Assembly (NCBI RefSeq): GCF_000143415.4
Contig: NW_003314336.1
Coordinates: 113,296 to 177,295 of the forward strand
Length of the DNA stretch: 64,000 nucleotides
Reading direction: 5' to 3'
Source: Selaginella moellendorffii
Taxonomy: Eukaryota > Plantae > Lycopodiophyta
Numbering within the stretch: the first letter of the stretch is position 1; each line of letters starts with the position of its first letter. Below are positions 2,837 to 62,600 of the stretch, one piece after another. A program made the position numbers and the translations under genes. Below the pieces are notes generated by a model. It was not told where the DNA came from. It worked only from the letters and a program-made list of their open reading frames with translations, and made no database searches.

Positions 2837-3429
2837 TGTAAGCAACCAAAGGGAACGACTTGAGAGACGATCCATGGGGTTCAAATATAGAGGGAAAGGG
2901 CCCATGAATAAGAGTGCACCCCCTTTTCCAATCGGTTAAGGGTCTTGGGATATTTGGGGTTAAGCGTCCTTGGGTTTGAATAGTACTGGGCTGGGTGACC
3001 TCCCGGGAAGTCCAAACTCAGGAGCTTACATTTGGTATCAGAGGGGTCTCGGGTCCAACTCTGTTGGTTGGCTATGGGAATCACACCACATGTTGATTGA
3101 CATCTGGCTGGTCCAGTTTGCTCCCGCTGGGCTCGACCCGAGGGGTAGGGTGTCAAGAGAGCGAGGCTCTCGGGAGAGCTGCGGCTCTCAGCTTCCGTTC
3201 ACGAGGGCGTGAACTTGCAGGGAAGCGTGGTGGATTGTAAGCAACCAAAGGGAACGACTTGAGAGACGATCCATGGGGTTCAAATATAGAGGGAAAGGGC
3301 CCATGAATAAGAGTGCACCCCCTTTTCCAATCGGTTAAGGGTCTTGGGATATTTGGGGTTAAGCGTCCTTGGGTTTGAATAGTACTGGGCTGGGTGACCT
3401 CCCGGAAAGTCCAAACTCAGGAGCTTATA
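2837..3429 (+). mobile_element. Cassandra TRIM (5S rRNA-containing terminal-repeat retrotransposon in miniature), copy 1
   Basis: 194-bp LTRs at 2837-3030 and 3236-3429 (TGTAAG...CTTACA/TA, 2 differences). PBS TGGTATCAGAGG (tRNA-iMet-like) at 3033, PPT-like GGGAAGCGTGGTGGAT, 5-bp TSD TCCCT (2832-2836/3430-3434), 5S core in each LTR. Confidence 0.95.
2958..3013 (+). promoter_or_regulatory. 5S rRNA-derived Pol III internal promoter (A box-IE-C box) in the Cassandra LTR; equivalent segments occur in the other three Cassandra LTRs
   Basis: GGTTAAGCGTCCTTGGGTTTGAATAGTACTGGGCTGGGTGACCTCCCGGGAAGTCC matches the 3' half of plant 5S rRNA (A box AGTTAAGCG, C box GGATGGGTGACC). Confidence 0.9.
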
Positions 3430-12578: not shown

Positions 12579-13129
12579 TGTAAGCAACCAAAGGGAACGA
12601 CTCGAGAGACAATCCATGGGGTTCAAATATAGAGGGAAAGGGCCCATGAACAACAGTGCACCCACTTTTCCAATCTGTTAAGGGTCTTGGGATAGTTGGA
12701 GTTAAGCGTCCTTAGGTTTAAATAGTACTGGGTTGGGTGACCTCCCGGGAAGTCAAAACTCAGGAGTTTACATTTGGTATCAGAGGGGTCTCAAGTCTGA
12801 CTCTGTTGGTTGGCTAAGGGAATCACACCACATGTTAATTGACATCTAGCTGGTCCAGTTTGCTCCCACTAAAGAGAGTTGCGGCTCTCATCTTCCGTTC
12901 ACGAGGGCATGAACTTGTAGGGAAGCGTGGTGGATTGTAAGCAACCAAAGGGAATGACTCGAGAGACGATCCATGGGGTTCAAATATAGAGGGAAAGGGC
13001 CCATGAACAAAAGTGCACCCCCTTTTCCAATCGGTTAAGGGTCTTGGGATAGTTGGAGTTAAGCGTCTTTGGGTTTGAATAGTACTGGGCTGGGTGACAT
13101 CCTGGGAAGTCCAAACTCAGGAGTTTACA
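12579..13129 (+). mobile_element. Cassandra TRIM, copy 2 (older, 42-bp shorter internal region), inserted in the Gypsy RT
   Basis: LTRs 12579-12772 and 12936-13129 (about 12 differences by eye), PBS TGGTATCAGAGG, TSD CCAAC (12574-12578/13130-13134). Removal restores RT FNVLQVG|LCNTGATFQ. Confidence 0.95.
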
Positions 13130-22430: not shown

Positions 22431-22432
22431 AA

Positions 22433-24540
22433 GTAACTTACATTCAGCGTGCCTTCAGGTCCTAATATATAACATTACTCAATTTCTTAAATAGATTCTT
22501 TAATTGAATTTTGCATAAGTATATAGAGTTCTATCCTGCAAAAATTTGTTCACTAGATCTTACGCATTTGCTAGGTTTTCCTCTAGTTCCCATGTTGCTT
22601 TGCAATGTGGAAATCCTTTCCACTTCACATGGAACTCCCTCACCTCATGTCCTTGTCACTTGCTCTTATGCATATTGAGGATGGCCTCAACTTCATATTT
22701 CTTTTCTGCTTAGATAACCTTAGGTAAAAGTCTTATGTGGTCCTTGCGAAATGAATCCTCAAAGTACAGATTGAATAACTTCATGTGGAACGTAGGGTGC
22801 ATCTTCCCCATCTCCCAAGCAAGTCGGAGGCGGTAGCCACCTTACCAATTCGAGCCTCAATCTCATAAAGCCCCACAAACTTTTCAACTTAGTGTGATAC
22901 TGTTCCAAAAAAGTTTTCCAGAACTTACTGATGAAGATCTTATCTAAATTTGAGATAATCTTTTTTGGCCTTCCTCACACTTGAACCACTTGTTTGAAGA
23001 ACAACTTTACCACACCTTCCACATCCACTTCCATTGTGGTGGGTGTAAAATGTGCCATCTTTAAGAACTAGTCCACCACCATTAATATTGCATCAAACCC
23101 CTCACTTGGGGGGAGTATTGTGATGAAGTCTATCGTAAGACATTTCCACAAAAAATCTGGAGTTGGGAGGCTTTGTAACAACCTTCCAGTAACCTTAGTT
23201 ACGGCTTTGACCTGCTGACATGTTGGACATGTCTTTACATAATTTTGGACATTCTTAGCCATGTATCAGTGATACTTCCTCTTGAGTAAGCCCATCATCT
23301 TGGACACTCTGCCATGTCTTGCAAAAGGTCCATTATGACACTCTTCTAAGGCTACCTTGTCCAACTTTTTTGAGAAAAACGCTATTGGATGGTTGTCTTG
23401 CTTCAAAATTGCACCCAATGCAAACTTTGAAGCACCTTGAAGTCCTTACCAAAGTGTAGTAATGCCAATATATGAGCCTTCCTCAACTTCCTTTTGAGGT
23501 GGACAAATGCCACCTCGCATTCCACTATCCACACCATCTTCCTTTTCTCATTTAAAGGTAGGGCTACTCTCGAATAGAGGTTGATATACTTTTGGTAGTA
23601 GTTGCATAGCCTCAAGAATGCCCTTAACTCGTGTACATTTGATGGTCGTTCCCATTCCTGGATCGCTTAGACCTTTTCAACGTCCACTTTGAGCTCGTCC
23701 TTGCCCACCACATGCCTGAAAAACTTTATCTCTTCTTGAGTAAAGTCACATTTGCTCTTTTTAGTATACAACTTGTGTTCCCTTAGTTTTTCAAACACTT
23801 TTATCAAGTGTTCGGCATACTTCTCTAGTGTTTTGCTATAGATCAAGATGTCGTCAATATAGACGACCATGATATGATCTATATAGAGTACAAAAATGTG
23901 GTTCATCGGTACTAAGAACGTTGTTAGTGCATTGCACAGCCCAAAGGGCATCACTAGAAATTCAAAGCTTCCATACCTTGTCCAACAGGTTGTCTTCTCA
24001 ATATCTTCCTCTGCTACCCAAATCTAGTAGTATCCTGACATTAGATTAATCCTCAAGAAGTATTTTGCCTTTCCCAATCTATTGAATAAGTTCTCAATCC
24101 TTGGTAAAGGGTATTTATTTTTTTTTGTATACTTGTTGAGCAACCGGTAGTCTATACATAGTGTATAAAGCCATTTTTCATTTTCACAAATAACACCGGT
24201 GCCCCATATAGCAACTTACTCAACCTAACATACCCCTTTTCCACCAACTCCTCAAGTTTACAATTGAGCTTCTTGAGTTCCTTTTCGTTCAACTAATAGG
24301 GGGGACGAACCACCACCTTAGCACCCTCAACCACCTTAATATTATATGCTATCAATTGTGTGGGGGTAACCTTGCTAGTAACTCCTCCAGCATGGTATTT
24401 TGAAATTGGTCCAACATCTACTGAATCAGTAAAGGTATTTTTTCTGTTCCTGTTTTTTTGTCACTCCTCATTGAGAGTAAAAACAAAAATGCTGCCTTGG
24501 TTCTCTTACACCTTACATTAGCCATCTCCCAGCAATTCGC
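22433..24540 (-). mobile_element. Deleted chromovirus (Ty3/Gypsy) fragment, same family as 57636-61576
   Basis: RT (MPFGLCNA, YIDDILIYS), integrase (CPTCQQVK, DFIT) and chromodomain (YEVEAILN...REFHVKWKGFP). The 3' flank is homologous to 60000-60105. Confidence 0.9.
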
Positions 24541-26988
24541 CTCTATCCTTAAAACTAACGAAAAGACTCCAATACCAAATTGTAAGTTTAAATAAATTTT
24601 GCCTTTCCAATTTACTAGCTTACTTTATCTATCCAATAAACTTTATTATAATACAATTAATTTCTTAATGTTAAGTGTACTTTAGCTTCCTACATTTCTG
24701 TAAATATCCACATTGATAGGAATAATATTCAAAATAAAAAAACAAGTTTTATATCATATATGGAAGTTTGGATTTCAAAAGTTATAGGGAAGTTATGATT
24801 TCAATATCTTTAAGCAAGTTTAAAACATTTGAACATTTGAGGGGAACCTTTGATTGTCCTTGAGGAGTGTTTGAATTTGGGATTTTGGTTTAGATCTAAC
24901 TTTTGCATTGTCTAGATCTAACTTTTTCCATTTTCTTTCTTTTGTTCTTCCTTTTCAGGAGTTTGGTTTAGATCTAGCTTTTTGCATTGTCTAGATCTAC
25001 AATTTCCTTCTAGCTTTTTGTCATTGATCTTCTTTTGCTCTTTCTTTTTCGTTCATTTTCATGGCAGATCAACAATCTCCTCCTTTGACTCTGGAGCAGC
25101 AGTTGGTCTAATTACTTGATGCTATGCACTTGCAATTGAACAACCAAACTCAATTGATGGTGGCATTCACAGCACATGCTACAACTCCTCCTACTCTTGG
25201 TGTCAATCCTCATGTTCAGCTGGAGTTCTTTCGCAGGAATTCTGGGGATGATGTGTACCATTGGTTCGATCACTTCACAGTGATTGCCACATATCATTCT
25301 TGGGATGATATTTGACATTTGTGTGAGTTTCCCACGTGTCTCCAAGGGACGGCGTTGCAATGGTATAATGGTTTGAGTGTAGCCACTCGTGGGGATTCAA
25401 GTGTTCTCCCGAATGTCTTCAAATGCGCTTTTGGACATGCCGATGACTGTGATTATGCCTTCCAACAATTGCATCATCTTCGCCACGGGCCATCTGAGTT
25501 AGTGATGCAATTTGGCATTCATTTCTAAAGTCTTTTGCTTCGTGCGGAGCCCAATATGTCAGAGCGGAACAAGCTAGGAATATTGTGGCTAGCACTTCGT
25601 CAAGATCTTGTCGGACTTGTGTATGCACTTGCTCCCGCCACCCTTGATGATGCTCTTCGTTTGGCACAACGTTATGAGATGTCACCTCTTCCACTTCTCG
25701 CTGCACATCCTTCAGCTCCACTTCCTATGAGTGATGGTCCTGTTCCAATGGAGGTTGATGCTGCTGCTACTCGAGTCCAAGGACAAGGGCGAGGATGTGG
25801 TCATGGCTGTGATGTTCGCTGCTAGGCATGTGACGAAGTTGGTCATACTTATCGGTGTTGTCGGTGTTTTCTGGATTGGTGACCTCCATTTCAAGGGTGG
25901 AGACCTTGGCATCAGCAACGTCCCATTGGTGTTGCTGCAGTGGAAGTTTTGGACACCGAAATGAGGAGTCGCACAAGTAATGGAGGGACCTTGCGCAAAT
26001 AAGTTGGTGACCCCTCCATCTTTCTTTTGGGAGTATTATCAAGGGGTTCACTCAGCACTGATTCATCCAGTGTTTACTTTCCAAGATCATTTTTATAACA
26101 AGAGGTCTTCTATTATTCTCTCCGTGTTGGTTGATACAGGTTCAAATTTATCTTCTATTGCTCGACCTGTTGCCACGCATTGTCATCTACACTTGCGTCG
26201 TGTGGCGGAACCAGTTTTCATTCTTTATAGCAACAGCCGTATACATGCATGTCATGGGATGAGACGGACCTGGTTGTGCATGTGGGTGATCTCAAGCTTG
26301 AGTTGCAGTCGTTGCGGGTGGTGCCGAGTCAAACTTTTGACCTCATTCTCGGTATGGATTGGTTGCAGCGCAATTATGCCAAGTGTGACTTTGAGGCTTC
26401 TCCCCCTTATCTCATACTTCCTTATGTTTCATCCATTCCTCTCACTTTCGTACCTCTTTGTTCCTCTACTTCTACCTCTGCTTCTATTACTTTCTCTCCC
26501 CCACTATGTCCTCCTATGTTTCCATCTTGTTCTACTCTTCCCTTTTCCGATCCCTTTGACGATCTTTGTGTTGCAGCGGTTGACCGGCTCATGAAGGACT
26601 ATTCTGATCTCTTTGAATTTGACCTATCTTCTCAGGCCAATATTGCCACACGTCATCCGATTCCAACCAGGGATGCTCGTCCAATCAAGGTTCCTATTCG
26701 TCGTCGGTCACCCAAGGAGATCAAGATTTTACGTGCAAACATCAAGGAGATGCTAAAGAAGGGTGTTATTTGGAAGTCGCGGAGTCTTTGGGCATGTGAA
26801 CCTCATCTTGTGACGAAGCCTGATGCGAGTATTTGTTTCTGCATTGACTATCGTCCGTTAAACGAAGTGACGATCCCGAATGTGTACCCTCTTCCTCACT
26901 GTTGATCTCTCTAGGGCAAAGTCATTGGTTCACCAAGCTAGATCTTGCTTCTGGGTACTGGCAAGTACCGATGGCCGAAGAAGATATT

Positions 26989-28647
26989 TGTAAGCAACTA
27001 ATTTTTCCATTTTTACTTTAATCACTTAACCGCACCTCCGACCACTTGGAGGAGTCTCACTCATAACCTCCGTAAGTCCTATTTTGGACTTGGGCTTACT
27101 AGCCCCGAGAATCACATCCCCGCCACTCAACTTTTGCACTTGGTCCAAGTGCTCCATGTGTCCGATCCCATGACCGACACCCCAAGGTACCACCAACATA
27201 TCAGTCCGTTACACTAAGGCCATGCCTATTCACCTTGGTCACACCGATGGTCTGACACCACCTGCACCCCAGTCCCGTCACTCAAGGACTGGGCCATCCA
27301 TCCACGAGTGATCATCCCAAATCCACTCCTTAGCATCCTTAGGATGCCCACAGACATGGGGATTAACCTTCCCCAATATCTCCGTTCCAGTCCCCACCAA
27401 GTCCCTTTCCGTCCTTGGCCGAGTTCGCCAACGCTGCCACTAGATCAAGGCTCACGGGCCCAACCATTAAGTCACACTGTCCTCTAGGACTTCCTCCCTG
27501 TGTGATTGTGTCCTTGGTCACCACACCAGAGGGCTACTCCTCTTCCTTTCCACAGTCTGGGACTTTGGGACGACATTTCAGAACACCGTGGCACTACACA
27601 GGCCTTGTGGGTACTCTCCCTGCCTTTCGCCTTTAGGTGCTCTAGCCATGGGGTTAGAGCGAGGTTCCATTGAGCCACACTAGGTATCCAAGTAGGTAGT
27701 GCCACCCACACTTGGACTGGGAGCATCGGCCAGACGATCTCCCGGGGGAACTAAAGCCGGCTCTTGAACACTTCACCAAGCTACCCCGCTTGTCGGTCCG
27801 TGTTCACTCTAGTCTTGGACTTCCCAGTGGTCAGCTCATAACCCAACACTGGGTGTAGACTCTCTGGGCCAAACTGGCCTTTCCTGGCCAAACTGGCTCC
27901 ACTGCAGTCCTCCCCCTTACTATACTTTTGGAGCTCACCAAACCCCCCAGGGTCTGGGAGACAAACGCTTTGGGCTTTCACCCTCTTAGACTTGAACTCG
28001 GACTCAGACTCGGACTCGGACTCGGACTTGGCCTCGGTCTCGGTCCCGGTCCCGATCTCGGTCTTGGTCTCAGTCTCGGTCTCGGTCTCGGTCTCGACCT
28101 TGGACTCCATCTCGGGTCCTTCTCGGACTCCATCTCGGATTCCATCTCGGGTCCATCTCGGACTCCATCTCAGACTCTGTCTCGGTCCAGCTCGGACTCC
28201 GTCTCGGTCCACCTCGGACTTCGTCTCGGACTCCATCTCGGACTCCATCTCAGTCCATCTTGGACTCCATCTCGGTCCACCTCGGACTCCATTTCGGACT
28301 CCATCTCGGACTCCATCTCGGACTCCATCTCGGGCTCCACTTCGGACTCCATCTCGGGTCCATCTCGAGCCCCACTTCGGGTCCATCTCGGACTCCACTT
28401 CGGGTCCATCTCGGACACTTCCACGTGTCATGTGTTGGTCCTTTTGGGTCCCTTTTTGGAGCCTCGCTTATTGCTCGCTTCATACTCGTTCTTTGAGCAC
28501 TCCATTGAGAGTTCCACTCCTGCTCTCAACCTCTCAAGTCGGAGCCTTTTAGTCCAAACGTGTTACGCTCGTTTGGCTTTTGCTTCGGCCACTACCACAT
28601 GGCACCCTTTCGGCTCCACTTTGGGGCTTAGGGATTTGTGTCTCACA
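26989..28647 (-). mobile_element. Solo LTR (1659 bp) related to the chromovirus LTR family, inserted in RT
   Basis: TG...CA ends and TSD ATATT (26984-26988/28648-28652). Removal restores EEDIPKTAF. Shares repeat array and terminal sequence with the LTR at 60444-61576. Confidence 0.9.
27995..28420. repeat. 6/12-bp tandem repeat array (GACTCG, GGTCTC, GACTCCATCTCG) inside the LTR
   Basis: Directly visible. Homologous arrays at 57722-57826 and 60530-60790. Confidence 0.9.
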
Positions 28648-30843: not shown

Positions 30844-31980
30844 TGTTAGGCACCAGCTTTGACCACGTGGTCAACATCTGTCAAAGGGAGGCTCAAGGTA
30901 TATTAAGGCATATTAGGGTAAGGGATTTAACCTACCCACAGTGGAGTCGTGGCATAGTGGAGCTTTTGAGGTAGCTCAGGGGTAGTTGGGTGGTGAGGAA
31001 CCTCAAGAGGAGGCGTAGTATAGTCTAGGAAGACTAGATTTTTGTCTTTTTGCGCTGGATCATAAAATTGGTATTAGAGGAGTTGGTTGCGATGGCTGAC
31101 CAAGCTGAATGCTAGAATCCTATTGTCGATGGTGGTGCTGATGGAGTTGCGGAGATTTGGATCATTCAAGATGTTGTTCATGAACTACAAGCCCTTAATT
31201 GAAATCAGCAAGAGATGCAAGATAAGATGCATGGCATGATGGATACCATATGTGGGCGTGTTAAAGCACTCGAGCTTGGACATTGTAGCGCTCCAAGTAA
31301 GCCTTCTTTGGTAGATTGACTCAAGATTCCAACCTTTTCCAATGATGCTGGTGTAGACGAGTGTCTCACTTGGCTAGCCAATGTGAAGTTCTTGGCTGCT
31401 AGAGGCTTTAGTGGCTATTCCAATGGTTTTGCGTAATGCGGGTTTTCGATGGTGGAATTGGCTTGAGGAGTCTCATGTTATGGATAAGAAACCACCAGTG
31501 TCTACCATGGATGAGTTTGAGGCTGCTTTCCATTTACGTTTTGCCCCTCATTACGACGTGGAGAATGCTCGTACAAAACTTTGACATTTTCAGCAAGGGA
31601 AAATGACACTTGGGGACTATATTGAGAAGCTTACTCGCTTGATTAGCCATGTTCCAACAAAGGATCCAGATCAGAACAAGTCCTACTTCATTAATGGCCT
31701 ACAGTGAGAGCATGTGGCAACACTTGCGTCATTCTCAACCTACAAAGAGTTTGCAGGAGCTCTTTGATGCGGCTCATCGACTTGACAATGACAAGCACAA
31801 GTCTCCCATGCGGTCGTAGAGTCCTTTTGTCAAGAATCATTGTGATGATCACCATGGACACAAGGATGGGAACAAGCATCACAAGTTGAAGTCAGTGGTG
31901 ACTACTTCGGATGCAAAGGGGTCCAAGAAGCAGAAGTTCTTTATGAAGAATTATAGATAGGGTGTCATAATTGCGGCGAA
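30844..31980 (+). mobile_element. Truncated second copy (LTR-PBS-gag) of the 233-bp-LTR Gypsy family
   Basis: LTR 30844-31067, PBS TGGTATTAGAGG, gag paralogous to 32620-33280. Breaks at about 31980 in the zinc knuckle. Confidence 0.88.
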
Positions 31981-32615
31981 GAGACGGTAAATAACCATCC
32001 CAATCCGAATGTTGAAAGTTCACATACTTCGCGATCATCCCTTTGAACATCTGAATGAGCGGTTCCACCAAATCATCTGATTGTGGATGATAAGCACTCA
32101 TAAAAGTGTGGCATATCCCCAACTGAGATGTCAAAACATGAAATGCCTCAGCCATAAATGTGGAACCATTATCCGAAAGAATCTGCTCTGGACAAGAATC
32201 CTGGAACACCACTCGATTGAGGAGGAAGTATCTAACAACAATTACAGAGGCATTAGCAAGGGCACCAACTTCCACCCAATGAGTCAAGTAGTCAGAAGAA
32301 ATAATAACATACTCATTACTAGTAGTCGATCGTGGAAAAGGTCCCATAAGATCAAACACCACCAACTCAAACAGATGGGAAACTGCAATTGACTCCAACC
32401 GTCCTTCCGCAGTATGAGGGGGAATATTACGAGCTTGGCACCAAATGCAACTATGCACATACCGGATAATATCACGTCGCATCTCCGGCTAATAGAAATA
32501 CCTGCGCAGCTTCTCAGCCATATGACGATATCCCATATGCCCACCTAGAATAAGAGAATCATGGTAGGCATGGAGAAACCACAGAATAAAGACAAAAGGC
32601 ACCACTAGCCATACT
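31979..32615 (-). mobile_element. Integrase fragment belonging to the 25061 Gypsy (inverted)
   Basis: HAYHD...GGHMG, CIWCQ, FDLMGPFP, ILSDNG, AYHPQSD motifs. Confidence 0.88.
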
Positions 32616-35600
32616 TTTTCTGGTGATGGTGGTGTGGACGAATGTCTCGTTTGGCTAACCAATGTGAAGAAGTTCTTGGCTGCTAGAGGAACTCCAGATG
32701 CAGAGGCTTTAGTGGCTATTCCGATGGTTTTGAGTGATGCAGGTCTTCGATGGTGGAATTGGCTTGAGGAGTCCCGTGTTGTGGATAAGAAACCACCAAT
32801 GTCTACCATAGATGAGTTTGAGGTTGCTTTCCGTTTATATTTTGCCCCTCATTATGACATGGAGAATGCTTGTACAGAACTTCAACATTTCCAGCAAGGG
32901 AAAATGACGCTCGGGGACTATATTGAGAAGCTTACTCGCTTGATTAGTCGTGTTCCAATGAAGGATCCAGATCAGAACAAGTCCTACTTCATTGATGGCC
33001 TACATAGTGAGAGCATGCGGCAACACTTGCATCATTCTCAACCTACAAAGAGTTTGGAGGAGCTCTTTGATGCAGCTTGTCGACTTGACAATGACAAGCA
33101 CAAGTCTCGCAAGCGTTCGTAGAGTCCTTCTGTTGAGAATTATCGTGATGATCACTGTGAACACAAGGATGGGAACAAGCATCATAAGTTGAAGTCGATG
33201 GTGACAACTTCAGATGCAAAGGGGTCCAAGAAGCAGAAGTTCTTTGTGAAAAATTATAGATAGTTATCATCATTGCGGTGAACTTGGACACTACAAGGCT
33301 GATTGTCTGCAGTTGAAGAACAAGCAGTAGGACAAGAAGAATGGCCAATCTTCTTCTCACGGTAAGTCAGATACTAAAAAGTTGCAAACTTTGCAGCGTG
33401 AGGATGACGAGAATGACCATTCCGGTCAGAGGAAGCGACTTTCGATCATTGCTTATCAGCTCACCTATGTGTGGAACAAGATGGAGCTCGAGGATACACA
33501 TGAATCAACTTTAATGCGCATGTTCTGTAGCGATCCAGTGTGGATTTTACTGGATAGTGGGAGCGATGACAACTTTGTTTCGGTAAAGTTTGTTGCGGAG
33601 CATGGCCTAGTCACACGCAGAGTTCTTCCATACACAGTGGAAGGTGCAGCTACCTCTGCTCAGCATTTCAATGCTTGTGTCGAGGGGCTGGAAGTGTTAG
33701 TTGGCAAAACCACACTTGTGGAGACTTTTTATCTCGCGGATATCCATCGTGTGGATCTCATTCTTGGGATGCCATAGTTGGTGAAGGTGGATCCCGAGAT
33801 AAAGTAGAGTATTAAGCGTATCTCGCTGGAGTATGGTGGCGTTAAAGATGTGTGGTTTGGCAAGGGTGTTCAACCACCAGTTGTTATGCTCTCTGCTACA
33901 TCTTTGAAGCGGGCTTGTCGTAATGGAAAAGCACTTTCGAGTTACTTACTGTTTGTTCGTGACTTGGGGGACCAAGGCACATGTGGGGGAGAAGCAGCAG
34001 TATGGGATGTACTTAACGAGTTTTCTGATGTTTTTCCACATGAACTTCCTCATGGGTTGCCTCCATTATGAGGTGTGGAGCATGGGATTACATTGGAGCC
34101 GGGGACACGGCCAATTTACCGGTTTCCATTTCGGTTGAGTTATGCGGAGGAGCAAGAAGTTCAACGACAAGTCAAGGAGTTACTTGAGTTTGGATTTATT
34201 CAACCAAGTAAGTCTCCATTTAGTGCTCCGGTCTTGCTTGTGAAGAAGAAGGACGGTTCAATCCGGATGTGTATTGACTACCGCGCTTTAAACAAAAAGA
34301 CAGTGAAGGATAAGATGCCGATGCCACGTGTGGATGATATCCTGGACAAGCTTGGTGAAGCACGAGTGTTTACCAAGATTGATCTGAGGAGTGGATATCA
34401 TCAGATTGCAATGGATGATGCATCTATCTCCAAAACAGCATTTAACACAAACTTTGGACATTTTGAGTTTACAGTTATGCTGTTTGGTTTGACAAATGCA
34501 CTGGCCACATTTACTCGGTTAATGGTTTACTCGGAGGTGTTTGGGCGTTATCTTCATGAGTTTGTAGAGATTTTCTTGGACAATATTCTTGTTTTTAGCA
34601 AGAATATGGAGGAGCATAGGGTGCATTTGCACAAGGTTCTTTTGTTACTTCGAGACAACAAACTTTATGCGAAGAAGAGCTAATGTGAATTTGCAAAGTC
34701 GAAGGTAGAATATTTAGGCCATATTGTGACATCTAAAGGTGTCAAGACGGATCCAAAGAAGGTGGCTGTGGTGGAAAACTAGCCTACACTGACTACAGTG
34801 GCCGAGTTGTGCAGTTTTCTTGGTTTGGCTAGTTACTATCGACGTTTCCAGCATAAGTTTGCCAAGGTGGCTATTCCTTTGACGCGGTTGTTACACAAGA
34901 ATGTGCCATTCGAGTGGAAGAAGCCACAAGAGGAGAGTTTTGTGGCGCTGAAATGATTGTTGAGTGAGACTCTAGTACTTCACACTGCTGATCCATTGAA
35001 ACCTTACGAGGTGACATGCAATGCGAGTGGTTATGCACTGGGAGGAGTTCTCATGCAAGAGGGACACCCTATTGCATATGAGAATCGAACTTTGAATTCC
35101 GCAGAGCAACGTTATTCCACATATGAGCAAAAGTTACTCTCTATTGTTTATGCTTTGCGGATGTGGCGGCACTATCTTTATGGTGCAGTGTTCGTGGTGT
35201 TGACAGCTCACAAACCACTTGTGTATCTTTTCACACATAAGGAGTTGAACACTAGGCAAGCTCGTTGGATGGTTAAACTCATGGAGTTTGGGGAGTTTCC
35301 TATTGAGCATTATCTAGGAAAATAAAATGTGATGGCAGATGCTTTATCTCGTGTTTGTCATGTGACGACGTTACAAACACGATTTTGTCATCATTTGAGT
35401 AAGGTGGTCAGCGAGTTTGGGCAGTTGGTTGAGCATACTCTAGCTTAGGATGCTGAGGTGGCCTCTTTGTGAGACCAGGTGGAAGCTCCTTTCTCATTGG
35501 TGGATGGGATTGTCTACTACAATGGCCATGTATATTTGCCACAGGTGGATGCGTTAATTACTCAAGTTTTATTCCATTATCATGATCATCTAGAAGCCAA

Positions 35601-36995
35601 TCATTTTGGGGGGAAAAAGACGTATGAGTTGATTAAGCGCAACTTTTATTGGAGGAATATGAAGGCTGATATCCTCAAGTATTGTAAATCATGCGAGCTT
35701 TGTCAGCGAGTTAAGGTGCCACAGGAGAAGCCGGGGGGACTTTTGCAACCTTTACCTATTCTCAGAGCCGTTGGTGTAGTATCTCTATGGACTTCATCAC
35801 TTGTTTGCCATGAGCACAAAGACACAAGGAGCAAGTATGGGTCATAGTGGATCAGTTGACGAAGTATGTGCGGTTGTTGGCTCTTCAGAAGACTGTCACT
35901 ACCTCAGACTTGGCTGCGGTTTACTTGGAGAAGGTTTTTCCTAATTTTGGTTCGCTAGAGGACATCATTAGTGATCAAGATTCAAAGTTCACCGGTGGAT
36001 TTTGAAAAAGCTTTGCAAAGGCTACACAAGTGACTTTGAAACTCTTAAGTGGAGATCATCCTCAGATGGATGGGCAAACCGAGCATGTGAATCAGGTGGT
36101 GGAGGATATTCTACGTTGTAGCATTGGTCAAAGGCAAGGACAATGGGATTTATATCTTCCGTTGGTGCAATTTGCTTACAACAATAACCAACATAGTGGA
36201 ACCAAGCTAAGTCCTTACTTTGCCATGTTTGGAAGGCATCCTTGAACAGCAATGGAGTTGGGATTGCATTTGAGTAAGGACATTCAAGATAAGTTTGATT
36301 CCGAGGTGACTGATCTGGCCACAAAACTTGATGAGATTCTGGTGGTGAATTTGCAAGCAGCTCAGGATAGAGCAGAGAAGTTTGCCAATAAGCATCGCCA
36401 ATTCCGGGAATATAAGGTGGGTGATCTCGTCTTTGTGCACGTGATCTTTTCATCAAGTGAGCGACAGAACACCTTGGTGCCTTTACGGACAGGGAAGAGT
36501 GATAAACTTTCCTATCGATATGCTGGTCCATATGAAGTGCTGGAGCGCATTGGTAAAGCATTTTATAGGGTGCAGCTGCCAGCTGGGGTGAAAATTCATC
36601 TGGTATTTTATGTCAGCTAGTTGAAAGGTGTACTATCTCGGAGTGACAGGCCCAATGCCTCCTTGATGTATATGGACCAGGAGCTTGAGCAGGGTTCCCC
36701 AGAAAGGGTGATCACCGGTACAACTCATCCTTGGGACAAGGACTTTGTTGAGGGGGAAGAATTGTTAGGTGGCAACTTTGACTACATGGTCAATGTTGGT
36801 TAAAGGGAGGCTCAAGGGTATATTAAGGCATGTTAGGGTAAGGGACTTAACCTACCCTAGGGCTCACAAAGGAGCGGCGGCACAATGGAGCTTTTAAGGT
36901 AGCTCGGGGGTGGTTGGGTGGTGAGGAACCTCAAAAGGTGGCATAGCATAGTCTAGGGCAACTAGATCTTTGTCTTTTTGCACCGGATCATAACA
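32613..36995 (+). mobile_element. Ty3/Gypsy retrotransposon body (gag-PR-RT-RH-INT, no clear chromodomain), PPT and 3' LTR 36763-36995
   Basis: LLDSGS, CIDYRALN, IDLRSGYHQ, FLDNILV, CELCQ, HPQMDGQTE, YAGPY. PPT GAGGGGGAAGAAT. Many stops. Confidence 0.93.
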
Positions 36996-38017
36996 GTGTT
37001 AAAGCCTCCAACTCCAAGTTAAACCACTTGCTGCCCTTGGGTTTGACAAATGTCCTCTTGATTTTTATCTCCGAGGCCTATAAGCCTGAGTCTGGGCCCT
37101 CCACCTTCTTGACACTGCCTCCAACAGCTACACCGACCTCTGCTTCAGCTATAATTTTGCCACGCTATATGGCCCTAGCTTACCAGCCTCTTACTGTTGT
37201 ACGATTGCTGGGCAACATGGAGAGTGATGGGGGTGCAAGTGCTGTGGGAAGCTTGCAATCAGAACCACTTTGAGGGAAAACAAGTGAGGATCTCAGCAAT
37301 CATTGCAGTGTGGTAGCGACTAACATTGGAGGTGATTTGTTTGCACTACTCCATTCAAGAGGGCACAGGAAAACCGGAGACCACGTGTAAAGCCTAAAGT
37401 GAGTAGGAGCATTGCCTCGTGTAGTAGAATCACCACAGATGGGCAGCCTTGGTAACTCACCCATCCTCCCAACCATGTACATAGCACTAACAGTTGTCAT
37501 GCACTCGCGTCTTTGTGGTAGAGACACCCATGAGACACTCCCATAAACACTTGATACTGAAGGGATGGAATAAAGATAAGTATAGCACTGAGATGGGTCT
37601 ATCCCACCTCAGCTGAAATGCAGCCTCCTACTTGTGAGGCAAGCCTTTGGCAAAATACGTCTGCTCAGTACGTTCAGGATCCTCCCAGGGCTCGGCTTGC
37701 ATTAGCTTGACCCCAGGCATATGATATCTTCCTGTATAGGGAGGATAGTCCGTCAAGCTCCTCGGACTGGCCACGTGTCACTTGGTGACACATGGATGCC
37801 CATGAGGTACTGCAACTTCCCCATGGTTCAGCTACTCCCCAGTGGTTGCCCACTTAGCCTTGCTTCATGTTGGGTCGGGTTGGTTGTTTCACAAACACTG
37901 GAAGAAGGATCTAGAAAATCACTAAAACTGGAAGGAATTTATTAATCAATATTTTTATGGTGGAATGACTCTCTCACCACAGAATCATTTGAATAGCACC
38001 ACTATATAGTGTTTGTT

Positions 38018-49506: not shown

Positions 49507-50348
49507 ATTATAAGTGACTAAATTTTTCATTCTACTTTAGTCACTTTACCACACCTTTGACCACTTTGAGAAGTCTCACTCACAAATTCTATAGGTCCTC
49601 ATCCCAACTTGAGGTATTTGCTAAGTCCCAAAAGTGAATTTAATGCCACACTAATTTTGCATTTAGTCCAAGTTCTCCATGTGTCCAAGTCCCACCTCAG
49701 ACACCCAATGGTACCACTAACATCCCAGCCTTCTACTCTAAAGCTATATACATTCTCACTGTTTTATTAGTAGTCCAATACCATTTGTACCATGATCCTA
49801 TCTTTCCAAAACTAGACCATACATCATGAGTGGTATGGCCACTCCTTAGCCTTTTTGGAATGCCCCAAAGTATAAGGGAACACCATCCCCCAATATCCCT
49901 TCTTTGATCCCCACCAAATCGCTCTCTATCCACAATAATACTTGCCAACACCACCGTTTAGTCAGGGCCTAAAAGCCTTTACTAAGTGCCACTAACTTTT
50001 GAGACTTTCTCACCATATAACCATACCCTTGGTTACTAGGCAAGAGGGCCACTCCTCTTCCTTTCCACCATTAGGGACTTTGGGATAATTTTTCAAAACA
50101 CTTTGCCCAATGTGAGCCTTGTAGATACTCTCCCCAGCTTTTGCCACTAGGGTTCCTTAGGCATGTGGCTAGAGCAAGGTTCTGACTTGGTCTCAANNNN
50201 NNNNNNNNNNNNNNNNNNNNNNNNNNNNNNNNNNNNNNNNNNNNNNNNNNNNNNNNNNNNNNNNNNNNNNNNNNNNNNNNNNNNNNNNNNNNNNNNTATA
50301 CAAATCACCTTTGGCTCCACTTTTAAACTTTAGGGATTTGTGTCTTAG
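49507..50348 (-). mobile_element. Decayed solo LTR related to 26989-28647 (spans an assembly gap)
   Basis: Colinear similarity to 26989-27670 and to the terminus TTAGGGATTTGTGTCT. More AT-shifted than the other copy. Confidence 0.75.
50197..50296. other. Assembly gap (100 N)
   Basis: N run. Confidence 1.
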
Positions 50349-51299
50349 AACTCCACCACCCATAGACTAGTTTTGATGTTATTGAATGATAATATATTTT
50401 CTGAAGTAACCCTATCATGGATTACCATTTAATCTTTGCACCAAGCCATTATTCGTCAATGGTTTACACTGAAGGCTCACCATGTCTTCCATATCCTCTA
50501 AGGAGTATGGAACCTCCAGCTTAGAGACTCATTGAATCACTTGTGATGGTTATCTCACTTTGCTAGTTTAGATCTTGCTAAGCTTACTAGAGACACCTTT
50601 TGTATCTCAATCTTACCACTCATTTTGGAGAAGTCTTGAACCATATCAATATAAGGATTGCTCTTTAGAACCTTAACATTGACTTTTCATATTAATTTCC
50701 TAGGTGTATTCAACACCTTCTAATGCATATCTTTGTTTTATGAACTCTAGTTTTTTCATTCTAGGGAGTTTTTCACTTGAGGACACCATCATCCTCTCTT
50801 TTATCTTGTGCCAATCTAGGTACTGTATTCCACTTATCCATAATTTATGTTAGAGATACTCATAGCACTATCATTTAACTACATTGCCACTCTATCTTTT
50901 GGAGCTTTCACCTTTCACTAAATTAGAGTAATTGGGAATTCCATCCTTTTGAAACTTAATACTTTTCCCATATATCCATTAGCACCCACCCTTTTGTGGT
51001 CTCTCATCTTTATTATTTGGATTCATTTTAATATTTTTTAGGCTCATTTTTTGCCACTAGTCTTTTACACATATCCTTTAATTATTGCACCAAACAATAT
51101 AGGATCACTACCTCTATCCTTGGGGTATCCTTTTTGTTTGATAGCAAAGACTCTGCTTTGCCAAGTCTAAAGGGTGTTCACCCCTAGTAAATCTTACCAT
51201 CATTTTCTATTGTAGGAACTATCTACAGCCCAATCTCATGATTCTCATTCTTAAAGACTACTACTTTTTTGGACTCATAATACCATATATTGTAATAGA

Positions 51300-52110
51300 T
51301 CATTTCACATTAGATGTCTTTCCCACTTAAACACCATGACTAAGTCATTTCATTACCAATTGTTCAAATCATTGCTTTGAGTTAGGAACTTTATTCCTTA
51401 ACTTAGCAAGGATCTTGTTCTTGATTAGCCATAAGATCACCTAATGATCCCATATAGACACCTCATCAAATTTATCAATATGTACTAGAACTATCCAACC
51501 TTTGAGTTATTGACCACGATCCTGAAGGAATCCCCCACACTTGGCAGTGCGCCCAAGTCAGCTCTTCTGGCTAAGGGTATATGGCAACTGAGATTGGGTG
51601 TCCCCATCCCATTCACCCCACCCTGACACCACTTATATTGAAGTATTCAAGTTAGATGTATTGAGTTTCCATATCAAGCACACTAACCATGGACCACAAC
51701 TCTGGGGCATCCCCCAGTTGGTAGTATGCCTAATATAGCTTTTTTACTGAGATTCTATGACCACTAAAAAATGAATGTCTTCATATTCCAGACCATCACC
51801 ACACCCTAATGCTCTACTAGCACTAAATGGTTGGGACTTTAACCCAAACTCCACATATGCATATATGGACAACATCACACATGATGTTTAGTGTGAGTCC
51901 CCATGCCAATGCACCAAGATTATACCCAGGCTAACAAACTTCTTTCATATATACACTACTATGGTCACAATTTAGGGATCTTACTGGTCCTACCTTCCAA
52001 ATTATCTCACTTGACAAACTAAGTGATCAAGCTATGATCATACATAGACTCCTCCATAGTTGGTCTCATAAGCCTTCTATTCTAAAGTCAACTCTTCAAT
52101 TAGGAACTTC
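51300..52110 (-). repeat. Decayed retrotransposon non-coding fragment
   Basis: Reverse-strand similarity to 21520-22260. Confidence 0.6.
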
Positions 52111-55936: not shown

Positions 55937-58900
55937 AAATTATTTGTTTTACGGATATCAAATTTAAACATAGCAAATTGGTTCACCTCAGTGCTTTCAA
56001 ACTTGCCGAAAGAAAAAAGGAAATATTTTGACCAAGTGCTGCAACCTCTCCATTTTTATTTATACATACGTGCCCAGCGGAATCATTGCCTGTATGCATG
56101 GATGGCTGTGCCACCGAGAAAATTCCTAGTTCTAGGTGATATCTGTGGTTCTCATATTTTGAAGACAACTCAATCCCACAATTTTCTATTGCAACGTCAA
56201 ACATCTTGTTGAATAAGGATCTCAGCTATGAGCTCAGAAAGCTTCTCAAGATGAGGATTCGATGTAAGTTTCTGGTATTTCAAGCCATTGTCTCTTATTT
56301 TTCTGTGTGATATCCTCGCAGGAAAATCAAAGAATTCCAGAAGAAGGTGGAAGTCCAAAAAGCTGATCGTGTGAGGTTGGCAAAGATTGTCAGAGAATTT
56401 TATCTGAGAATGGAGAGCACCCAGTTACTGCAAAAGCTTGCTAAAATTTTGGAAAGTGGATCCAAAAGTCTTAGAAAAACTCTGTTTCTAACTACAAATC
56501 TTCTCACGAGATCATTCATGTTTACTCCATTGAAATTCAAGCAAGAGTTCTCGGCTATCTAGCATCTCCAAAGGCTACCTTGATTGAAAACAAAGGAACG
56601 AAAGGTTTGGAACATTTAAATGGAATTGGAGAATGATAAAGCACTGTGGGCGGTCTTTGACAGGATTTCATTCCATGCTTGGCTCCTGGGGTTCATGTAG
56701 GTGTTTCTTCTACCTACATGAGCCCCATGTCCTACTCCATTATTGGTTTCTACAATAGTTTATAGCTATTGCGGGAACTATAAAAAATATTCTTTGCTCC
56801 ACCTGGATCAAAAACTTCAGTACAAAATGGTTGTTGAGCGAGGCTCCAGTGCTTCGCATTGTTGATCCATCAAAGGCTTACGAGGTGACATACAATGCAA
56901 GTGGTTATGCATTAGGAGGAGTTCTCATGCAAGAGGGACAATCTATTGCATATGAGAGTTGAACTTTGGATCTTATAAAGCAATACTATTCCACATATGA
57001 GCAAGAGTTATGTTTATTGTTTATTCTTTGCAGACATGGCGGTACTATCTTTATGGTGCAATGTTTGTGGTGTTGACGAATCAGAAACTTCATGTGTATT
57101 TGTTCACATAAAAGGAGTTGAACACTAGGCAAGCTCATTGGATGGTCAAACTCATGGAGTTTAGGGAGTTTCCTATTGAGCATTGTCCAGGAAAATTGAA
57201 TGTGGTGGCAGATGCTTTATCTCATATTCGTCATATGATAACATTACAAACACTATTTTATCATCATTTGAGTAAGGTGGTCAGTGAATTTGGGCAATTG
57301 GATGGACATACTCAGGCTCAAGATGCTAAGATGGCCTTTTTGCAAGACCAGATGGAAGCACCTTTTTCATTGGTGGATGGGATTCTTTACTACAATAGCT
57401 TTGTATATTTGCTACAGATGGATGCGTTAATTACTCAAGTTTTATTCTACTATCATGATTGTCTAGAAGCCGGTCATTTTGGGGGGAAGAAGATATATGA
57501 GTTCATTAAGTGTAATTTTTATTGGAGGAATATAAAAGCTGATATCCTCAAGTATTGTAAATCATGTGAGCTTTGCCAGGAGGTTAAGGTGACACGGGAA
57601 CTTTTACCTATTCCTCAAAGCTGTTAATGTAGTATTGTAAGGAACCAACTTGCCAAGGTGTCGTAGGCTAAAGGAGCCCCGAAAGCATGACCAAAATGAT
57701 AAAGAGTTCATCGGATGGGACCAAGTCTAAGATCGAGTCCAAGACCGACTCTAAGACTGAGTTCAAGATAGAGCCCAGAATCGAGTCCGAGACCGACTCG
57801 GAGACCGAGTTCGAGACCGAGTTCGAGAAGGTCCAAGCGATCCAGGATTGGGAGCGACCATCAAATGTACACGAGTTAAGGGCATTTCTGGGGCTATGCA
57901 ACTACTATCAAAAGTTTATCAAACACTATTCGAGAGTAGCCCTGCCCTTAATGGATCAAATGGGAAAAGGGAAGATGGTATGGACAGCGGAATGCGAGGC
58001 GGCATTCGTCCACCTCAAGGGGAAGTTGAGGAAGGCTCCCGTGTTGGCATTACCAGACTTTGAGGTAGAAACGGATGCTTCAGACTTTGCGTTAGGCGCA
58101 GTTTTGAAGCAAGACAACCATCCAGTAGCATTCTTCTCGAAGAAGTTGGATAAGGCTTAATGGAAGTGGCCTACTCATGAGAAGGAATTGTTTGCGGTGG
58201 TCAAGGCACTCAAGGAGTGGCGACACTACCTTGGGAGACACTTCAAGGTTTACACGGACAATATGGCCACGAAACACTTCTTGTCATAGCCTGACCTAAG
58301 GGGAAAACAAGGTCGGTGGGCCAATGCTTTGGCCGAGTTTGATTGCGAGATTCTGTACAAGCCTGGGAAGAGCAACATCATGGCAGATGCGCTAAGTCAA
58401 AAAGCGAGCTTGAAGTTGGTGATATCCAGCGCAATAGCAACCTTTTGGGACGATGTGCGGACCACATACGAGAATGATGGTCTAGCACAAGAATTGTTGC
58501 TGAGGAATCTAGAGGCACAGGAAGCTCACCAGAGAGGTGAGTTGCCAACGGAAGAGAAAACGAGTTATGCGGAACGCAACGGACTCATATATTATAAGAA
58601 AATGAGGGTGTATGTTCCAGAAGGGGAACTAAGGAAGGTAGCCTTAGAAGAGTGTCATGACAGACCTCTTGTGGGACATGGCGGAGTGCCCAAGACAATG
58701 GGCTTACTCAAGAGGAAGTACCACTAGCCAGATATGGCTAAGGACGTCCAAGACTATGTAAAGACATGTCCAACATGTCAGCAGGTCAAAGCCGTGACTA
58801 AGGCTAGTGGGAGCTTGTTACAAAGCATCTCAATTCCAGATCGTCCATGGAAATGTCTTACGATGGACTTCATCACGGGACTCCCTCCAAGCGAGGGGTT

Positions 58901-59142
58901 CGATGTGATATTCATGGTGGTGGATCGAGTTTTGAAGATGGCACATTTCATACCCACCACAACGGAAGTGGATGCGGAAGGTGTGGCAAAGCTGTTCTTC
59001 GAACAAGTGGTTCAAGTGCGGGGAAGGCCAGAAGAGATTATCTAAGATCGAGATAAGATTTTCACCAGCAGGTTCTGGAGAACACTCCTAGAACAGTATC
59101 GCACCAAGTTGAAATTCAGCATAGCCTATCACCAACAGACAG

Positions 59143-59189
59143 GTAATGGGTATTAAGTCAAGTTTGATGGCACTAACACTTCTTGACAG
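59143..59189 (+). other. Putative spliceosomal intron 1 (47 nt) in the integrase core
   Basis: G|GTAATG...CACTAAC...TTGACAG|AC. Removal restores YHQQT-D-EQMERVN (HPQTDGQTERVN motif). Confidence 0.85.
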
Positions 59190-59607
59190 ACGAACAAATG
59201 GAAAGGGTGAATAGGCAGCTGGAGGATTATTTGCAATGCTATGTCTCGGGAGACTAAACCGATTGGGTAAGTCCTTTGGGACTTGCGGAAATGTGTTATA
59301 ACAACTCACCACATTCGAACATCGGGGTGAGTCCATGGGAAGTCATCAATGGGCGAGCTATTGAAGGTCCTGTGGAACTCGGGATGGCCGAGTATCATGG
59401 AGAGTTACCCGCAATGGAGGCATTCACGGCGGATAGACTCAACATTTGGAATCTAGTGAGGGATTCCTTGGAACGGGCTCAACAAAGGCAAACCAAGTAC
59501 GCGAACCAGAAGCGTCAAGACGTAGAGTTCCAAGCTGGGGAGAAGGTGTGGCTGAACACCAAGAACCTCAGGCTACCAAGTGGGATCAGCTGGAAGTTGA
59601 CCCAAAG

Positions 59608-59658
59608 GTAAAAATGCATGTATTCCGTAAATGAATTGATCTTGAGTTCCTTAAGCAG
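59608..59658 (+). other. Putative spliceosomal intron 2 (51 nt) before the integrase GPY/F motif
   Basis: AG|GTAAAA...TTAAGCAG|G with an in-frame TAA. Removal restores KLTQRFAGSY (KL.PR..GP(Y/F) motif). Confidence 0.85.
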
Positions 59659-62600
59659 GTTCGCGGGGTCTTATGAGATTGAGGCTCGAATCGGTAAAGT
59701 GGCTTACCATCTCCGACTTCCTCGAGAGATGGGGAAGATGCACCCCGTGTTCTACGTGAACTTGCTCAAGCCATATTTTGAGGATCCGCTTCGCAAGGAC
59801 CAAGTAACACCTTTACCTAAGGGTATCAAAGGGGAAGAGGAATACGAAGTCAAGGCCATCCTCAATACGCGCAAGAGCAAGCGACAAGGACGCGAGGTGA
59901 GAGAGTTCCATGTGAAGTGGAAAGGATTTCCACACTGCGAAGCAACATGGGAACCGGAGGAGAACCTAGCGAACGCGCGAGATCTAGTGGAGGAATTTCT
60001 ATAAGGCAGAACTCTATGTACTTATGCAAAGTTCAATTAAAAGTATCAATTTGAGAAGTTGAGCAATGGCATATGTTGGGACCCGAAGGCGCGCCGAAGG
60101 TAAGCTAATTAGCATGGGTTAGCTAAGTCGACCAGGCGTAGGGAACTACGCCTAACTCCCTACGGGGATATCGAATCCGTAGACGTATTCTATGGAGGTT
60201 GGGTTCAAGTCCCAACCCCCTAGTAAAGCAAGGCTGGGTTCAAGTCCCGACCCCATACTAGGGCATGGTGAGGTGAGGAATATAGGGACACCTATATTCC
60301 GTTGTCATGGGCTCTTGGCCAGGGAGGCTAACTTAGGCACACCGCTAAGTGGGGGGATGCCCCCAGAGACGTGGTCAACAAGTCATAGGATAAAAAAGAG
60401 ACGTTCGATGTGGGTATCAAACTTCTTCTATGGGTGGTGGAGTTGTAAGGAACCAACTCGCCGAGGTGTTGTAGGCTAAAGGAGCCCCGAAAGCATGACC
60501 AAAATGATAAAGAGTTCATCGGATGGGACCAAATCTAAGATCGAGTCCAAGACTGACTCTAAGACCGAGTTCGAGATAGAGCCCGGAATCGAGTCTGAGA
60601 CCGACTCGGAGACCGAGTTCAAGACCGAGTTCAAGACGGAGTCCGAGATCCAAAATCGGGTCCGAGACCGAGTCCGAGGTTGAGTCCGAGGTTGGGTCCA
60701 AGATCGGGTCCGAAATCGAGTCCGAGATCGAGTCCGAGACCGAATCCGAAGTTGGATCCGAGATCGAGCCAGAGACTAAGTCCGAGTACTAATACGGGTC
60801 AAGGGGTGAAAGCCCAAAGCGTGCGTCTCCTAGGAGGGGGGGGGGGGGGGCTGCAGGGGGTTCCAAAAGTATAGTAGGGATAGTGAGGTCCAGGAACCAG
60901 TTGTGAAGGAACTCTCCAGGGGGGCTTCCAAACTAACTTGAGGTTGGGACTGGGACCGAGGGGCCTTGGGTGGGAGTGAGCATGGACTTGGTTGGTGCCG
61001 GAGGGGCCATCCAAGGAAGTGCTCAAGAGCAGCTCCCACTCCCGAAAGGGAAACCGACTGCGGGGCTCCTGGCTCATGTGGAGGGGTGCCCCACTTGAGT
61101 ACCATGCGGCTCATTGGTCCTCGCCCTTCCTAAAGGCTTGGACCTTTCCTTCGGGATGGAAGTGGGAAGGGTAAAGGTACCCATACCGGGCCGTTAGGCC
61201 ACGGTGTTTCGCCCCGGCGTCCCGATGCAAGTGTTGCACCCAAGACTTGGGATTTAGAGGGTCCCATGATCAAGTTTTGTAGTACCAAGGAATGTTAGGA
61301 ACCTGGAAGCTTGGTGTGCTTGGCTGCTTGTGCTTGGGGGGAGTGTAACTGAACCTTTAGTCTAGTCTAACCCGGGGAAGGGGATTGGGAGAGATTTGGG
61401 AATCCGTGGATGGATGGCTAACACTCCGTTGCTCGTGTAGTGAGTAGCTGAAACCAAGTAGGAGCTGGTACCATAGGCAGGAACCTTGGCGAGGGGACTT
61501 AGCAAAAGCTAAGGCAGTGTTGGACGGATAGACGAGGTAAGCTGGCAAATTGGAAAGGAAAAATTTGTGGCTTACAAGTATTTCTGTGGACTTCATCACT
61601 TATTTACCACGAACACAAAGGCAAAAGGACCAAGTATGGGTCATAGTGGATCGGTTGATGAAGTATGTGTGGTTGTTGGCTCTTCAAAAGATTATCACTG
61701 CCTCAGACTTGGCTGTGGTCTACTTGGAGAAGGTTTTTTCTTGATTTTGGTTTGCTAGAGGACATCATTAGTGATTGAGATTCAAAATTCACTAATGGAT
61801 TTTGGAAGTGTTTTGCAAAAGCTATACAAGTGACTTTGAAATTCTCAAGTGGAGATCATCTTCAGATGGATGGGCAAACCAAGTGTGTGAATCAGGTGGT
61901 GGAAGATATGCTACATTGTAGCATTGGTCAAAGGTAGGGATAGTGGGATGTATATCTTCCGTTGGTATAATTTGTTTAGAACAATAGCCAATACAGTGGA
62001 ACTAAGCTAAGTCTTTACTTTGCCATGTTTGGAAGGTATTTCTAACCAGTGGTGGAGTTGAGATTGCATTTGAGTAAGGATGTTTAAGATAAGCTTGATT
62101 CTAAGGTGACTAATCTGGCCACAAAACTTGATGAGATTCTGGTTGTGTGCAAATGGAATTTGCAGGTAGCTCAAGATAGAGCAGAGAAGTTTGCTAATGA
62201 GCATCATCAATTTTGGGAATATATAGTTGGTGATCTTGTCATTGTGTAAGTCATTTTTCTATCAAGTGAGTGATGGAACACCTTGGTGCCTTTACGGATA
62301 GGGAAGAGTGACAAAATTTCACATCGATATGCTGGTCCATATGAGTGCTAGAGTGCATTGGTAAAGCGGCTTATTAGGTGCAGCTACCAACTGAGGTGAA
62401 AATTCATCTGGTATTTTATGTTAGCTAGTTGAAAGGTGTACTATCTCAGAATGTAAGGCCCAATGCCTCCTTCATGTATATAACTGTGGAAGATGGACCA
62501 GGAGCTTGAGCAAGGTTCCCGAGAAAGGGTGATCACCAATACAACTCATCCTTGGGACAAAGACTTTATTGTGGGGTTGTGGGGGGGGGGGGAATTGTTA

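Follow-up and report, generated by a model that had tools for sequence, protein, structure and literature searches.

Shared terminal signals point to a probable Galadriel-type chromovirus family as a candidate helper of Cassandra elements in Selaginella moellendorffii

Cassandra is one of the oldest and most widespread TRIMs of plants. In LTR elements, reverse transcriptase (RT) primes at the PBS and the PPT, RNase H fixes the start of U3 at the PPT joint, and integrase recognizes the LTR tips and fixes the length of the TSD. The element that supplies these activities to Cassandra is the question raised by a 64,000-nucleotide stretch of the Selaginella moellendorffii genome (contig NW_003314336.1, positions 113,296 to 177,295, forward strand; the window), which holds Cassandra copies together with a chromovirus, X, that an initial annotation proposed as their autonomous partner. 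The partner of Cassandra was called "unknown" in a 2020 paper (PMC7215508).

The two Cassandra copies of the window lie on the plus strand. Copy 1 (2837..3429, TSD TCCCT) is 593 bp long and is built of two 194-bp LTRs and a 205-bp internal part; comparison of the two LTRs shows 2 differences in 194 sites (K 0.010). Copy 2 (12579..13129, TSD CCAAC) has a total length of 551 bp, with two 194-bp LTRs and a 163-bp internal part. Both copies display the features of a Cassandra TRIM, namely a length below 1 kb, paired LTRs, a Met PBS, a PPT, and no coding region. The 5S rRNA-derived domain of the LTRs was matched by RF00001 of Rfam in three of the four LTRs with E values of 0.0026–0.033, the best at 2940-3027 in copy 1, all below the gathering score, and the Rfam search of the window returned nothing beyond these domains. 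The PBS of copy 1, TGGTATCAGAG (3033..3043, plus strand), is of the initiator-Met type, is positioned 2 nt past the LTR end, and is present as the same motif in published Cassandras (PMC10853983). A hairpin with a 7-bp stem and an AGGG loop, a short spacer, and a PPT ending in GTGGTGGAT occupy 3197..3235 (plus strand).

The four Cassandra LTRs start with TGTAAGCAACCAA (at 2837, 3236, 12579, and 12936), and their U5 ends read GCTTACA once, GCTTATA once, and GTTTACA in both LTRs of copy 2. Among the U5-end variants listed for run X1, only C>T at 3025 was present, at about 7% of the summed depth, and GCTTACA looks like the usual form of the family. Contigs from one of two DNA runs of one sample and from a second organism were mapped to copy 1; mixed flanks start exactly at the predicted tips, and 19,820 contigs of run X1 fall on 0.7 kb of Cassandra. 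A Cassandra is expected to be transcribed by Pol III from its 5S promoter; RNA depth climbs inside the 5S domain, and reads resembling those of 5S genes accumulate there as well. Copy 1 is inserted in another high-copy repeat (2780-2836 and 3430-3480), the flanks of which are joined directly in contigs that represent empty sites. An adjoining stop-free frame of 505 codons (1201-2718, minus strand) and the frames at 5750-7738 have no Pfam match, and 9768-10418 has a weak NIF-like phosphatase match (E 3.5e-6).

The chromovirus copy X (57636..61576, plus strand, TSD AGTAT) is nested in a gypsy element of the G family and is defective. A stump of about 190 bases is left of its 5' LTR (57636..57824, plus strand) and is joined directly to the end of RT; the deletion removed U5, the PBS, gag, protease, and all of RT but its end. 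The deletion is not the general state of the family, because other X copies continue normally at the contig loose ends at 57825 and 57828. The retained coding region, on the plus strand, encodes the RT end, RNase H, a zinc finger, and the integrase core (57825..59141, four in-frame stops), followed by the C-terminal part of integrase with an SH3-like domain and a classical chromodomain (59192..60004, two internal stops). Pfam matches in the latter part include PF00385 (E 1.5e-15) and PF24626 (E 4.6e-13), and the order RT–RNase H–integrase with a C-terminal chromodomain is that of a Ty3/gypsy chromovirus. The 3' UTR (60005..60443, plus strand) is structured as a row of hairpins (z -4.4). The pre-PPT hairpin occupies 60403..60422 (plus strand). 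The PPT, GGGTGGTGGAGT (60432..60443, plus strand), follows a pyrimidine spacer. The 3' LTR (60444..61576, plus strand) is 1133 bp long, starts with TGTAAGGAACCAA, as does the stump at 57636, contains a 12-nt tandem array, and ends with GCTTACA.

The copy at 57636-61576 is thus a dead deletion derivative with six internal stops, and therefore only the X family, not this copy itself, could help Cassandra. The family is abundant: 64,191 contigs of run X1 fall on 4.4 kb of X, and numerous other insertion flanks occur in contigs at either end of the 3' LTR. The contigs mapped to X came from both DNA runs of the one sample and from a second organism. In run X1, Cassandra and X reach summed contig depths of similar magnitude, a measure that is not a copy number. 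The contig pieces listed, all shorter than 350 nt, include no intact X copy, and the viral contigs scanned gave no match.

Two hairpins of the X 3' UTR carry GGTTCAAGTCC loops, and related stretches are located at 21685-22252 and 51352-51917. We take these loops to resemble the T-loop of tRNA; ARAGORN detected no tRNA anywhere in the window. The 12-nt arrays in U3 of X-group LTRs (60521-60809, 57713-57838, and 27991-28416) differ in the number of units. Part of the X LTR (60928-61515) is covered by RNA reads on one strand, at a depth of about 15 and with fixed loose ends, which are probably the transcript of another locus that holds a piece of the LTR.

The similarity of Cassandra and X is concentrated at the PPT-U3 joint. 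The LTR starts TGTAAGCAACCAA and TGTAAGGAACCAA are alike in 12 of 13 bases, and 21 of the 23 aligned positions across the joint are identical. Anchored at the LTR start, the joint of X scores 15 against that of Cassandra, compared with 9 for the related 3' end F and 3–6 for copies of the unrelated G family; none of 40 foreign plant joints exceeds 5. None of 100,000 random joints reached 15, and, given TGTAA, seven of the eight following bases were matched by chance in 39 of 100,000. Without the anchor, the 23-nt match has a BLAST E value of 2.0, the best found, and beyond the tips the two elements have no similarity. Of the LTR families compared, about four from one window of a genome that surely contains many others, and of the 40 foreign joints, X resembles Cassandra most. 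The foreign joints were called among 80 metagenome loci and make up a redundant panel that is weighted to Galadriel-like elements, with few non-Galadriel rows.

The GCTTACA end reported for both elements is present in X and in one Cassandra LTR, so that it is exact in one of the four Cassandra LTRs of the window. The occurrence of GTTTACA in both LTRs of copy 2 implies that an exact U5 end is seemingly not required. Furthermore, the U3 and U5 matches are partly a single signal, because LTR ends are inverted repeats. The motif TGTAAGCAAC at 26989, cited initially as an exact match from a related solo LTR, corresponds in reverse complement to the end of U5 in Z, a solo LTR on the minus strand; it was rejected as a U3 match, being of the wrong end and the wrong strand. 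The true U3 start of Z, TGTGAGACAC, agrees with Cassandra in 9 of 13 bases, a level that G, an unrelated family, also reaches (8–9 of 13).

The PPTs and the inverted repeats before them lie where they had been annotated (3197-3235 and 60403-60443). The loop of the X hairpin is TGGG and not AGGG, and its stem has one mismatch. The hairpins show no folding excess over shuffled sequences (z -1.5 and -1.1 in Cassandra copy 1; -0.4 and +0.4 in X). We nevertheless regard them as real, because related elements keep paired, sequence-divergent stems around an AGGA or AGGG loop before the PPT. Such a hairpin is commonplace in Cassandras and in Galadriel-type chromoviruses. The T-containing PPTs, described at first as atypical, are normal in both groups; GGTG is present in 65 of the 81 PPTs published for Cassandra, for which reason that description was dropped, and 8 of the 81 end in GGTGGAT (hand count, PMC10853983 supplementary table 2A).

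The PBS deleted from the X copy was recovered from other members of the family. Past the U5 end, ATT and a Met-type PBS follow, which bears out the expectation that full-length copies use a Met PBS; this PBS was present in 49 and 41 contigs of the two runs of one sample, and 45 contigs have mixed flanks. It differs from the Cassandra PBS in one base, and the relative Y has the same PBS type in decayed form. The four TSDs of the window, TCCCT, CCAAC, AGTAT, and ATATT, are all 5 bp long, as had been stated. X therefore shares with Cassandra its PBS type, PPT, LTR tips, and TSD length, features to be expected of a partner. Met is the commonest PBS type of plant elements (39%, PMC6317226) and occurs in all 22 chromovirus rows of the beet supplement. 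The Met PBS, 5-bp TSD, hairpin, and T-containing PPT do not single out X, because family G likewise has a Met PBS and a hairpin before its PPT, and the layout recurs in Galadriel-like elements elsewhere among plants.

The relatives of X in the window combine its signals differently. Y (22431..24660, minus strand) is an older relative, 82–87% alike to X in pol, with its U5 end at 24581, the decayed Met-type PBS next to it, and remnants of RT and integrase. The solo LTR Z (26989..28647, minus strand, TSD ATATT) starts with TGTGAGACAC and ends with GTTGCTTACA; its strand was called from the 12-nt arrays, which are inverted relative to those of X. F (49508..52092, minus strand) has the PPT of X at 50350-50361 and an LTR start of the Z type. 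The sister subfamilies Z and F thus have the U5 end or the PPT of X, yet another U3 start. The control gypsy family G (30845..36996, plus strand) is unrelated; it has LTRs of about 240 bp (TGTTAGG...ATAACA) and a Met PBS, and a hairpin precedes its PPT. The frames scanned gave no chromodomain match, and the family falls outside the Galadriel-like group in trees. Further stretches of G lie at 43485-43796 and 56825-62617, and another G copy hosts X. A gag piece of the copy at 30845-36996 is duplicated (31332-31980 and 32613-33282). The frame at 39626-41158, with LRR and protein-kinase matches, is a piece of a receptor-like kinase.

X is probably a Galadriel-type family, as judged from its protein and terminal sequences. 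Its closest full-length proteins are 44–46% identical. In two quick-mode trees of RNase H and integrase (RH-INT), it joins Galadriel-like and moss-like rows with modest support (SH-aLRT 80 and 92) and is separated from the rows of Reina-like, CRM-like, and G elements; the Galadriel labels were assigned by eye against Beon1, and the second tree comprised 34 loci chosen from the 80, two loci being left out for low coverage. Galadriel is the chromovirus clade spread over vascular plants, and its members from non-seed plants have a classical chromodomain (PMC6317226). Other X copies and Y have the tRNA-Met PBS of this clade and are not self-priming. Membership of the Tcn1 clade, defined by self-priming without a tRNA PBS (PMC6317226), was rejected based on the Met-type PBS of the other X copies.

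The 3' end of X is laid out identically to that of Galadriel-like loci, with a hairpin, a pyrimidine spacer, and a GTGGG-type PPT. This PPT type occurs in 29 of 38 called joints of related loci (L013 and L065 excluded); the calling rule demands a hairpin, so the joint count does not test for hairpin presence. The sequence of the hairpin stem differs between groups with pairing kept (L004, L005, L038, and the moss-like L018 and L020). The Cassandra primers of barley, oat, and apple contain the hairpin core of the Galadriel-like locus L004, which in those of barley and apple reads CGACG-AGGA-CGTCG; the same loop is also present in the CRM-like locus L078. Among the 22 beet chromovirus rows, only the PPT of the Galadriel element Beon1 contains GTGGGGG, and the PPT of beet Cassandra likewise contains it. 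Since angiosperm Cassandras share the hairpin-spacer-PPT layout with Galadriel-like elements, the link may be lineage-wide, as these terminal sequences suggest.

The integrase of X contains an unusual segment. A conserved integrase motif is divided into two frames by 47 nt (59143..59189, plus strand) that begin with GTAATG, end with GACAG, and so have the GT...AG form of an intron, with a CTAAC-type motif. The segment is not private to the X copy, because diverged contigs cross it without a gap. In related loci, one alignment spans the integrase motif in 65 of 69 cases, three stop at the motif where their contig ends, and a simple frameshift accounts for the remaining one. RNA depth at the segment is below 1.1 in one run, too thin to read splicing, and none of the 15 joints listed, of 357, skips it. 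Our literature search found no report of an integrase intron of this kind. The segment may be a retained intron, which would be an unusual control of integrase supply in a gypsy element. It may also be an insertion that carries a 5-base duplication and has become fixed in a non-autonomous subfamily, and this would weaken X as a helper.

The proposal that the X family mobilizes these Cassandras stands as far as the shared signals and the first rank of X in the window are concerned; the signals are partly generic, and mobilization is what we infer from them. The reading we prefer, on which our judgement is evenly balanced, is that the Cassandras are copied in trans by the RT, RNase H, and integrase of intact X members or of immediate sister subfamilies. 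Cassandra RNA from the 5S-derived promoter would enter X particles, and the hairpin before the PPT would be the likely signal for its recognition. tRNA-iMet would prime at the Cassandra PBS, RNase H would cut at a PPT joint that mimics that of X, and the X-group integrase would act on the matching tips and generate 5-bp TSDs. Selection would keep the Cassandra tips matched to those of the helper present locally. LTR divergence is equal in Cassandra copy 2 and the X copy (K 0.065), an overlap in age for one copy; copy 1, at K 0.010, inserted more recently than the X copy and hence requires a helper active later. The three published fern Cassandra PPTs are without GGTG, and the Cassandra of the window has GTGGTGGA, as X does (PMC10853983). 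In two RNA runs labelled as one species, reads cover the internal part of Cassandra on one strand at a depth of 7–36, in contrast to a depth of at most 1.35 over the X coding region (one run).

A wider form of this relationship, which we put forward tentatively, is that Cassandra parasitizes Galadriel-type chromoviruses across vascular plants, having taken the hairpin-spacer-PPT module from them, while its tips track the local helper, here X. X would make full integrase only from RNA that lacks the 47-nt intron, and the packaged RNA would keep it. Retention of the intron in packaged RNA would, within this reading, weaken the cis preference and thereby favor hitch-hikers such as Cassandra. Tips that co-vary across species, if confirmed, would mark a long-lived pair of parasite and helper.

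Galadriel-type chromoviruses in general might serve Cassandra, its 3' end being derived from them, with a family other than X as the working helper. We consider this possible, if doubtful. The AGGA/AGGG-loop hairpin, pyrimidine spacer, and GTGGG-type PPT recur in Galadriel-like loci (29 of 38) and in angiosperm Cassandras, the relative F combines the PPT of X with another LTR start, and the X copy is older than the youngest Cassandra. However, the U3 bases after TGTAA are particular to X, and lineage features alone do not produce the match of Cassandra and X, because no foreign Galadriel-like joint exceeds a score of 5, against 15 for X.

It is unlikely, in our estimate, that Cassandra uses any active LTR machinery and that its match to X combines generic chromovirus signals with a lucky stretch of eight bases. 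Generalist mobilization is argued for in a 2026 beet study, in which 61 of 115 non-autonomous families have no traceable partner (PMC13570524). The Met PBS, 5-bp TSD, TG..CA tips, and pre-PPT hairpin also occur in family G and in the CRM-like locus L078, the unanchored match has an E value of 2.0, and Galadriel elements are scarce in pear (7–8 copies) and in beet (6 of 921 RTs), where Cassandra is abundant. The match nevertheless falls exactly at the functional joint and extends to both sides of it, and its U3 part alone has the low chance frequency given above even when TGTAA is granted. An old template switch that gave Cassandra the PPT-U3 joint of X, with other helpers moving it now, would account for a similarity that does not extend beyond about 23 nt at a single joint, and module swapping has been described for non-autonomous elements (including PMC13570524). 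We regard it as very improbable: the U5 end of Cassandra matches X as well, and X must be packaged together with Cassandra for a template switch to occur, so that it would have been a helper already at that time.

Several systems resemble the proposed one of Cassandra and the X family. The Cassandra of the window has a 5S-like LTR domain and a nearby Met PBS, as do the fern Cassandras of Sphaeropteris, Didymochlaena, and Nephrolepis (PMC7215508, PMC10853983). Fern Cassandra LTRs measure 187–208 bp, compared with 194 bp here, and both lack coding capacity and have 5-bp TSDs (PMC7215508, PMC10853983); both the length of the LTRs here and the closeness of the PBS to the 5S domain agree with a fern-type Cassandra. 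The PPT differs, being GCGTGGTGGAT here and AAGGGGGCGAT or GGGGCGGTTGT in ferns (PMC10853983), and the tips read TGTAAG, whereas those of pear and sugarcane Cassandras read TGTAAC. X shares the Met PBS and the classical chromodomain with the Galadriel clade, which includes the lycophyte element SM-Galahad and Beon1 of beet (PMC6317226, PMC3350952, PMC3605345), and further resembles it in the GTGG-type PPT behind a hairpin and pyrimidine spacer and in its RH-INT tree position. It is unlike the clade in its long branch, the 440-nt structured 3' UTR, the LTR tandem array, and the intron-like integrase segment.

The available portions of PMC13570524, PMC10946416, PMC4079214, PMC7215508, PMC10886601, PMC4717578, PMC3605345, PMC3350952, PMC6317226, PMC4668562, PMC4918200, PMC12486564, 10.64898/2026.03.01.708851, and 10.1101/2023.07.14.548913 name no helper of Cassandra; Kalendar 2008 and Maiwald 2021 may treat partners. 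Pairs of the kind proposed here have been described elsewhere among LTR elements. Dasheng, a non-autonomous element, is reportedly paired with the autonomous RIRE2. Helenus has been paired with Copia or Gypsy elements by shared cis signals, as here (PMC10886601). The 11 TRIM-helper candidate pairs of Gao et al. share 79–98% of the LTR, in contrast to the tips shared by Cassandra and X (PMC4717578). Retrozymes are a parallel in the form of the argument: their Ty3-gypsy helpers were likewise inferred from two short boxes, one spanning the 3' end of the LTR plus the PBS and the other the PPT plus the 5' end of the LTR, with no other similarity (PMC4918200). They differ from Cassandra in having hammerhead ribozymes and 4-bp TSDs, and neither Galadriel nor Cassandra occurs in the available text of that paper (PMC4918200). 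By their terminal sequences, Cassandra and X add one more candidate to such pairs, and with a candidate family and its lineage named, the question of the Cassandra helper becomes testable.
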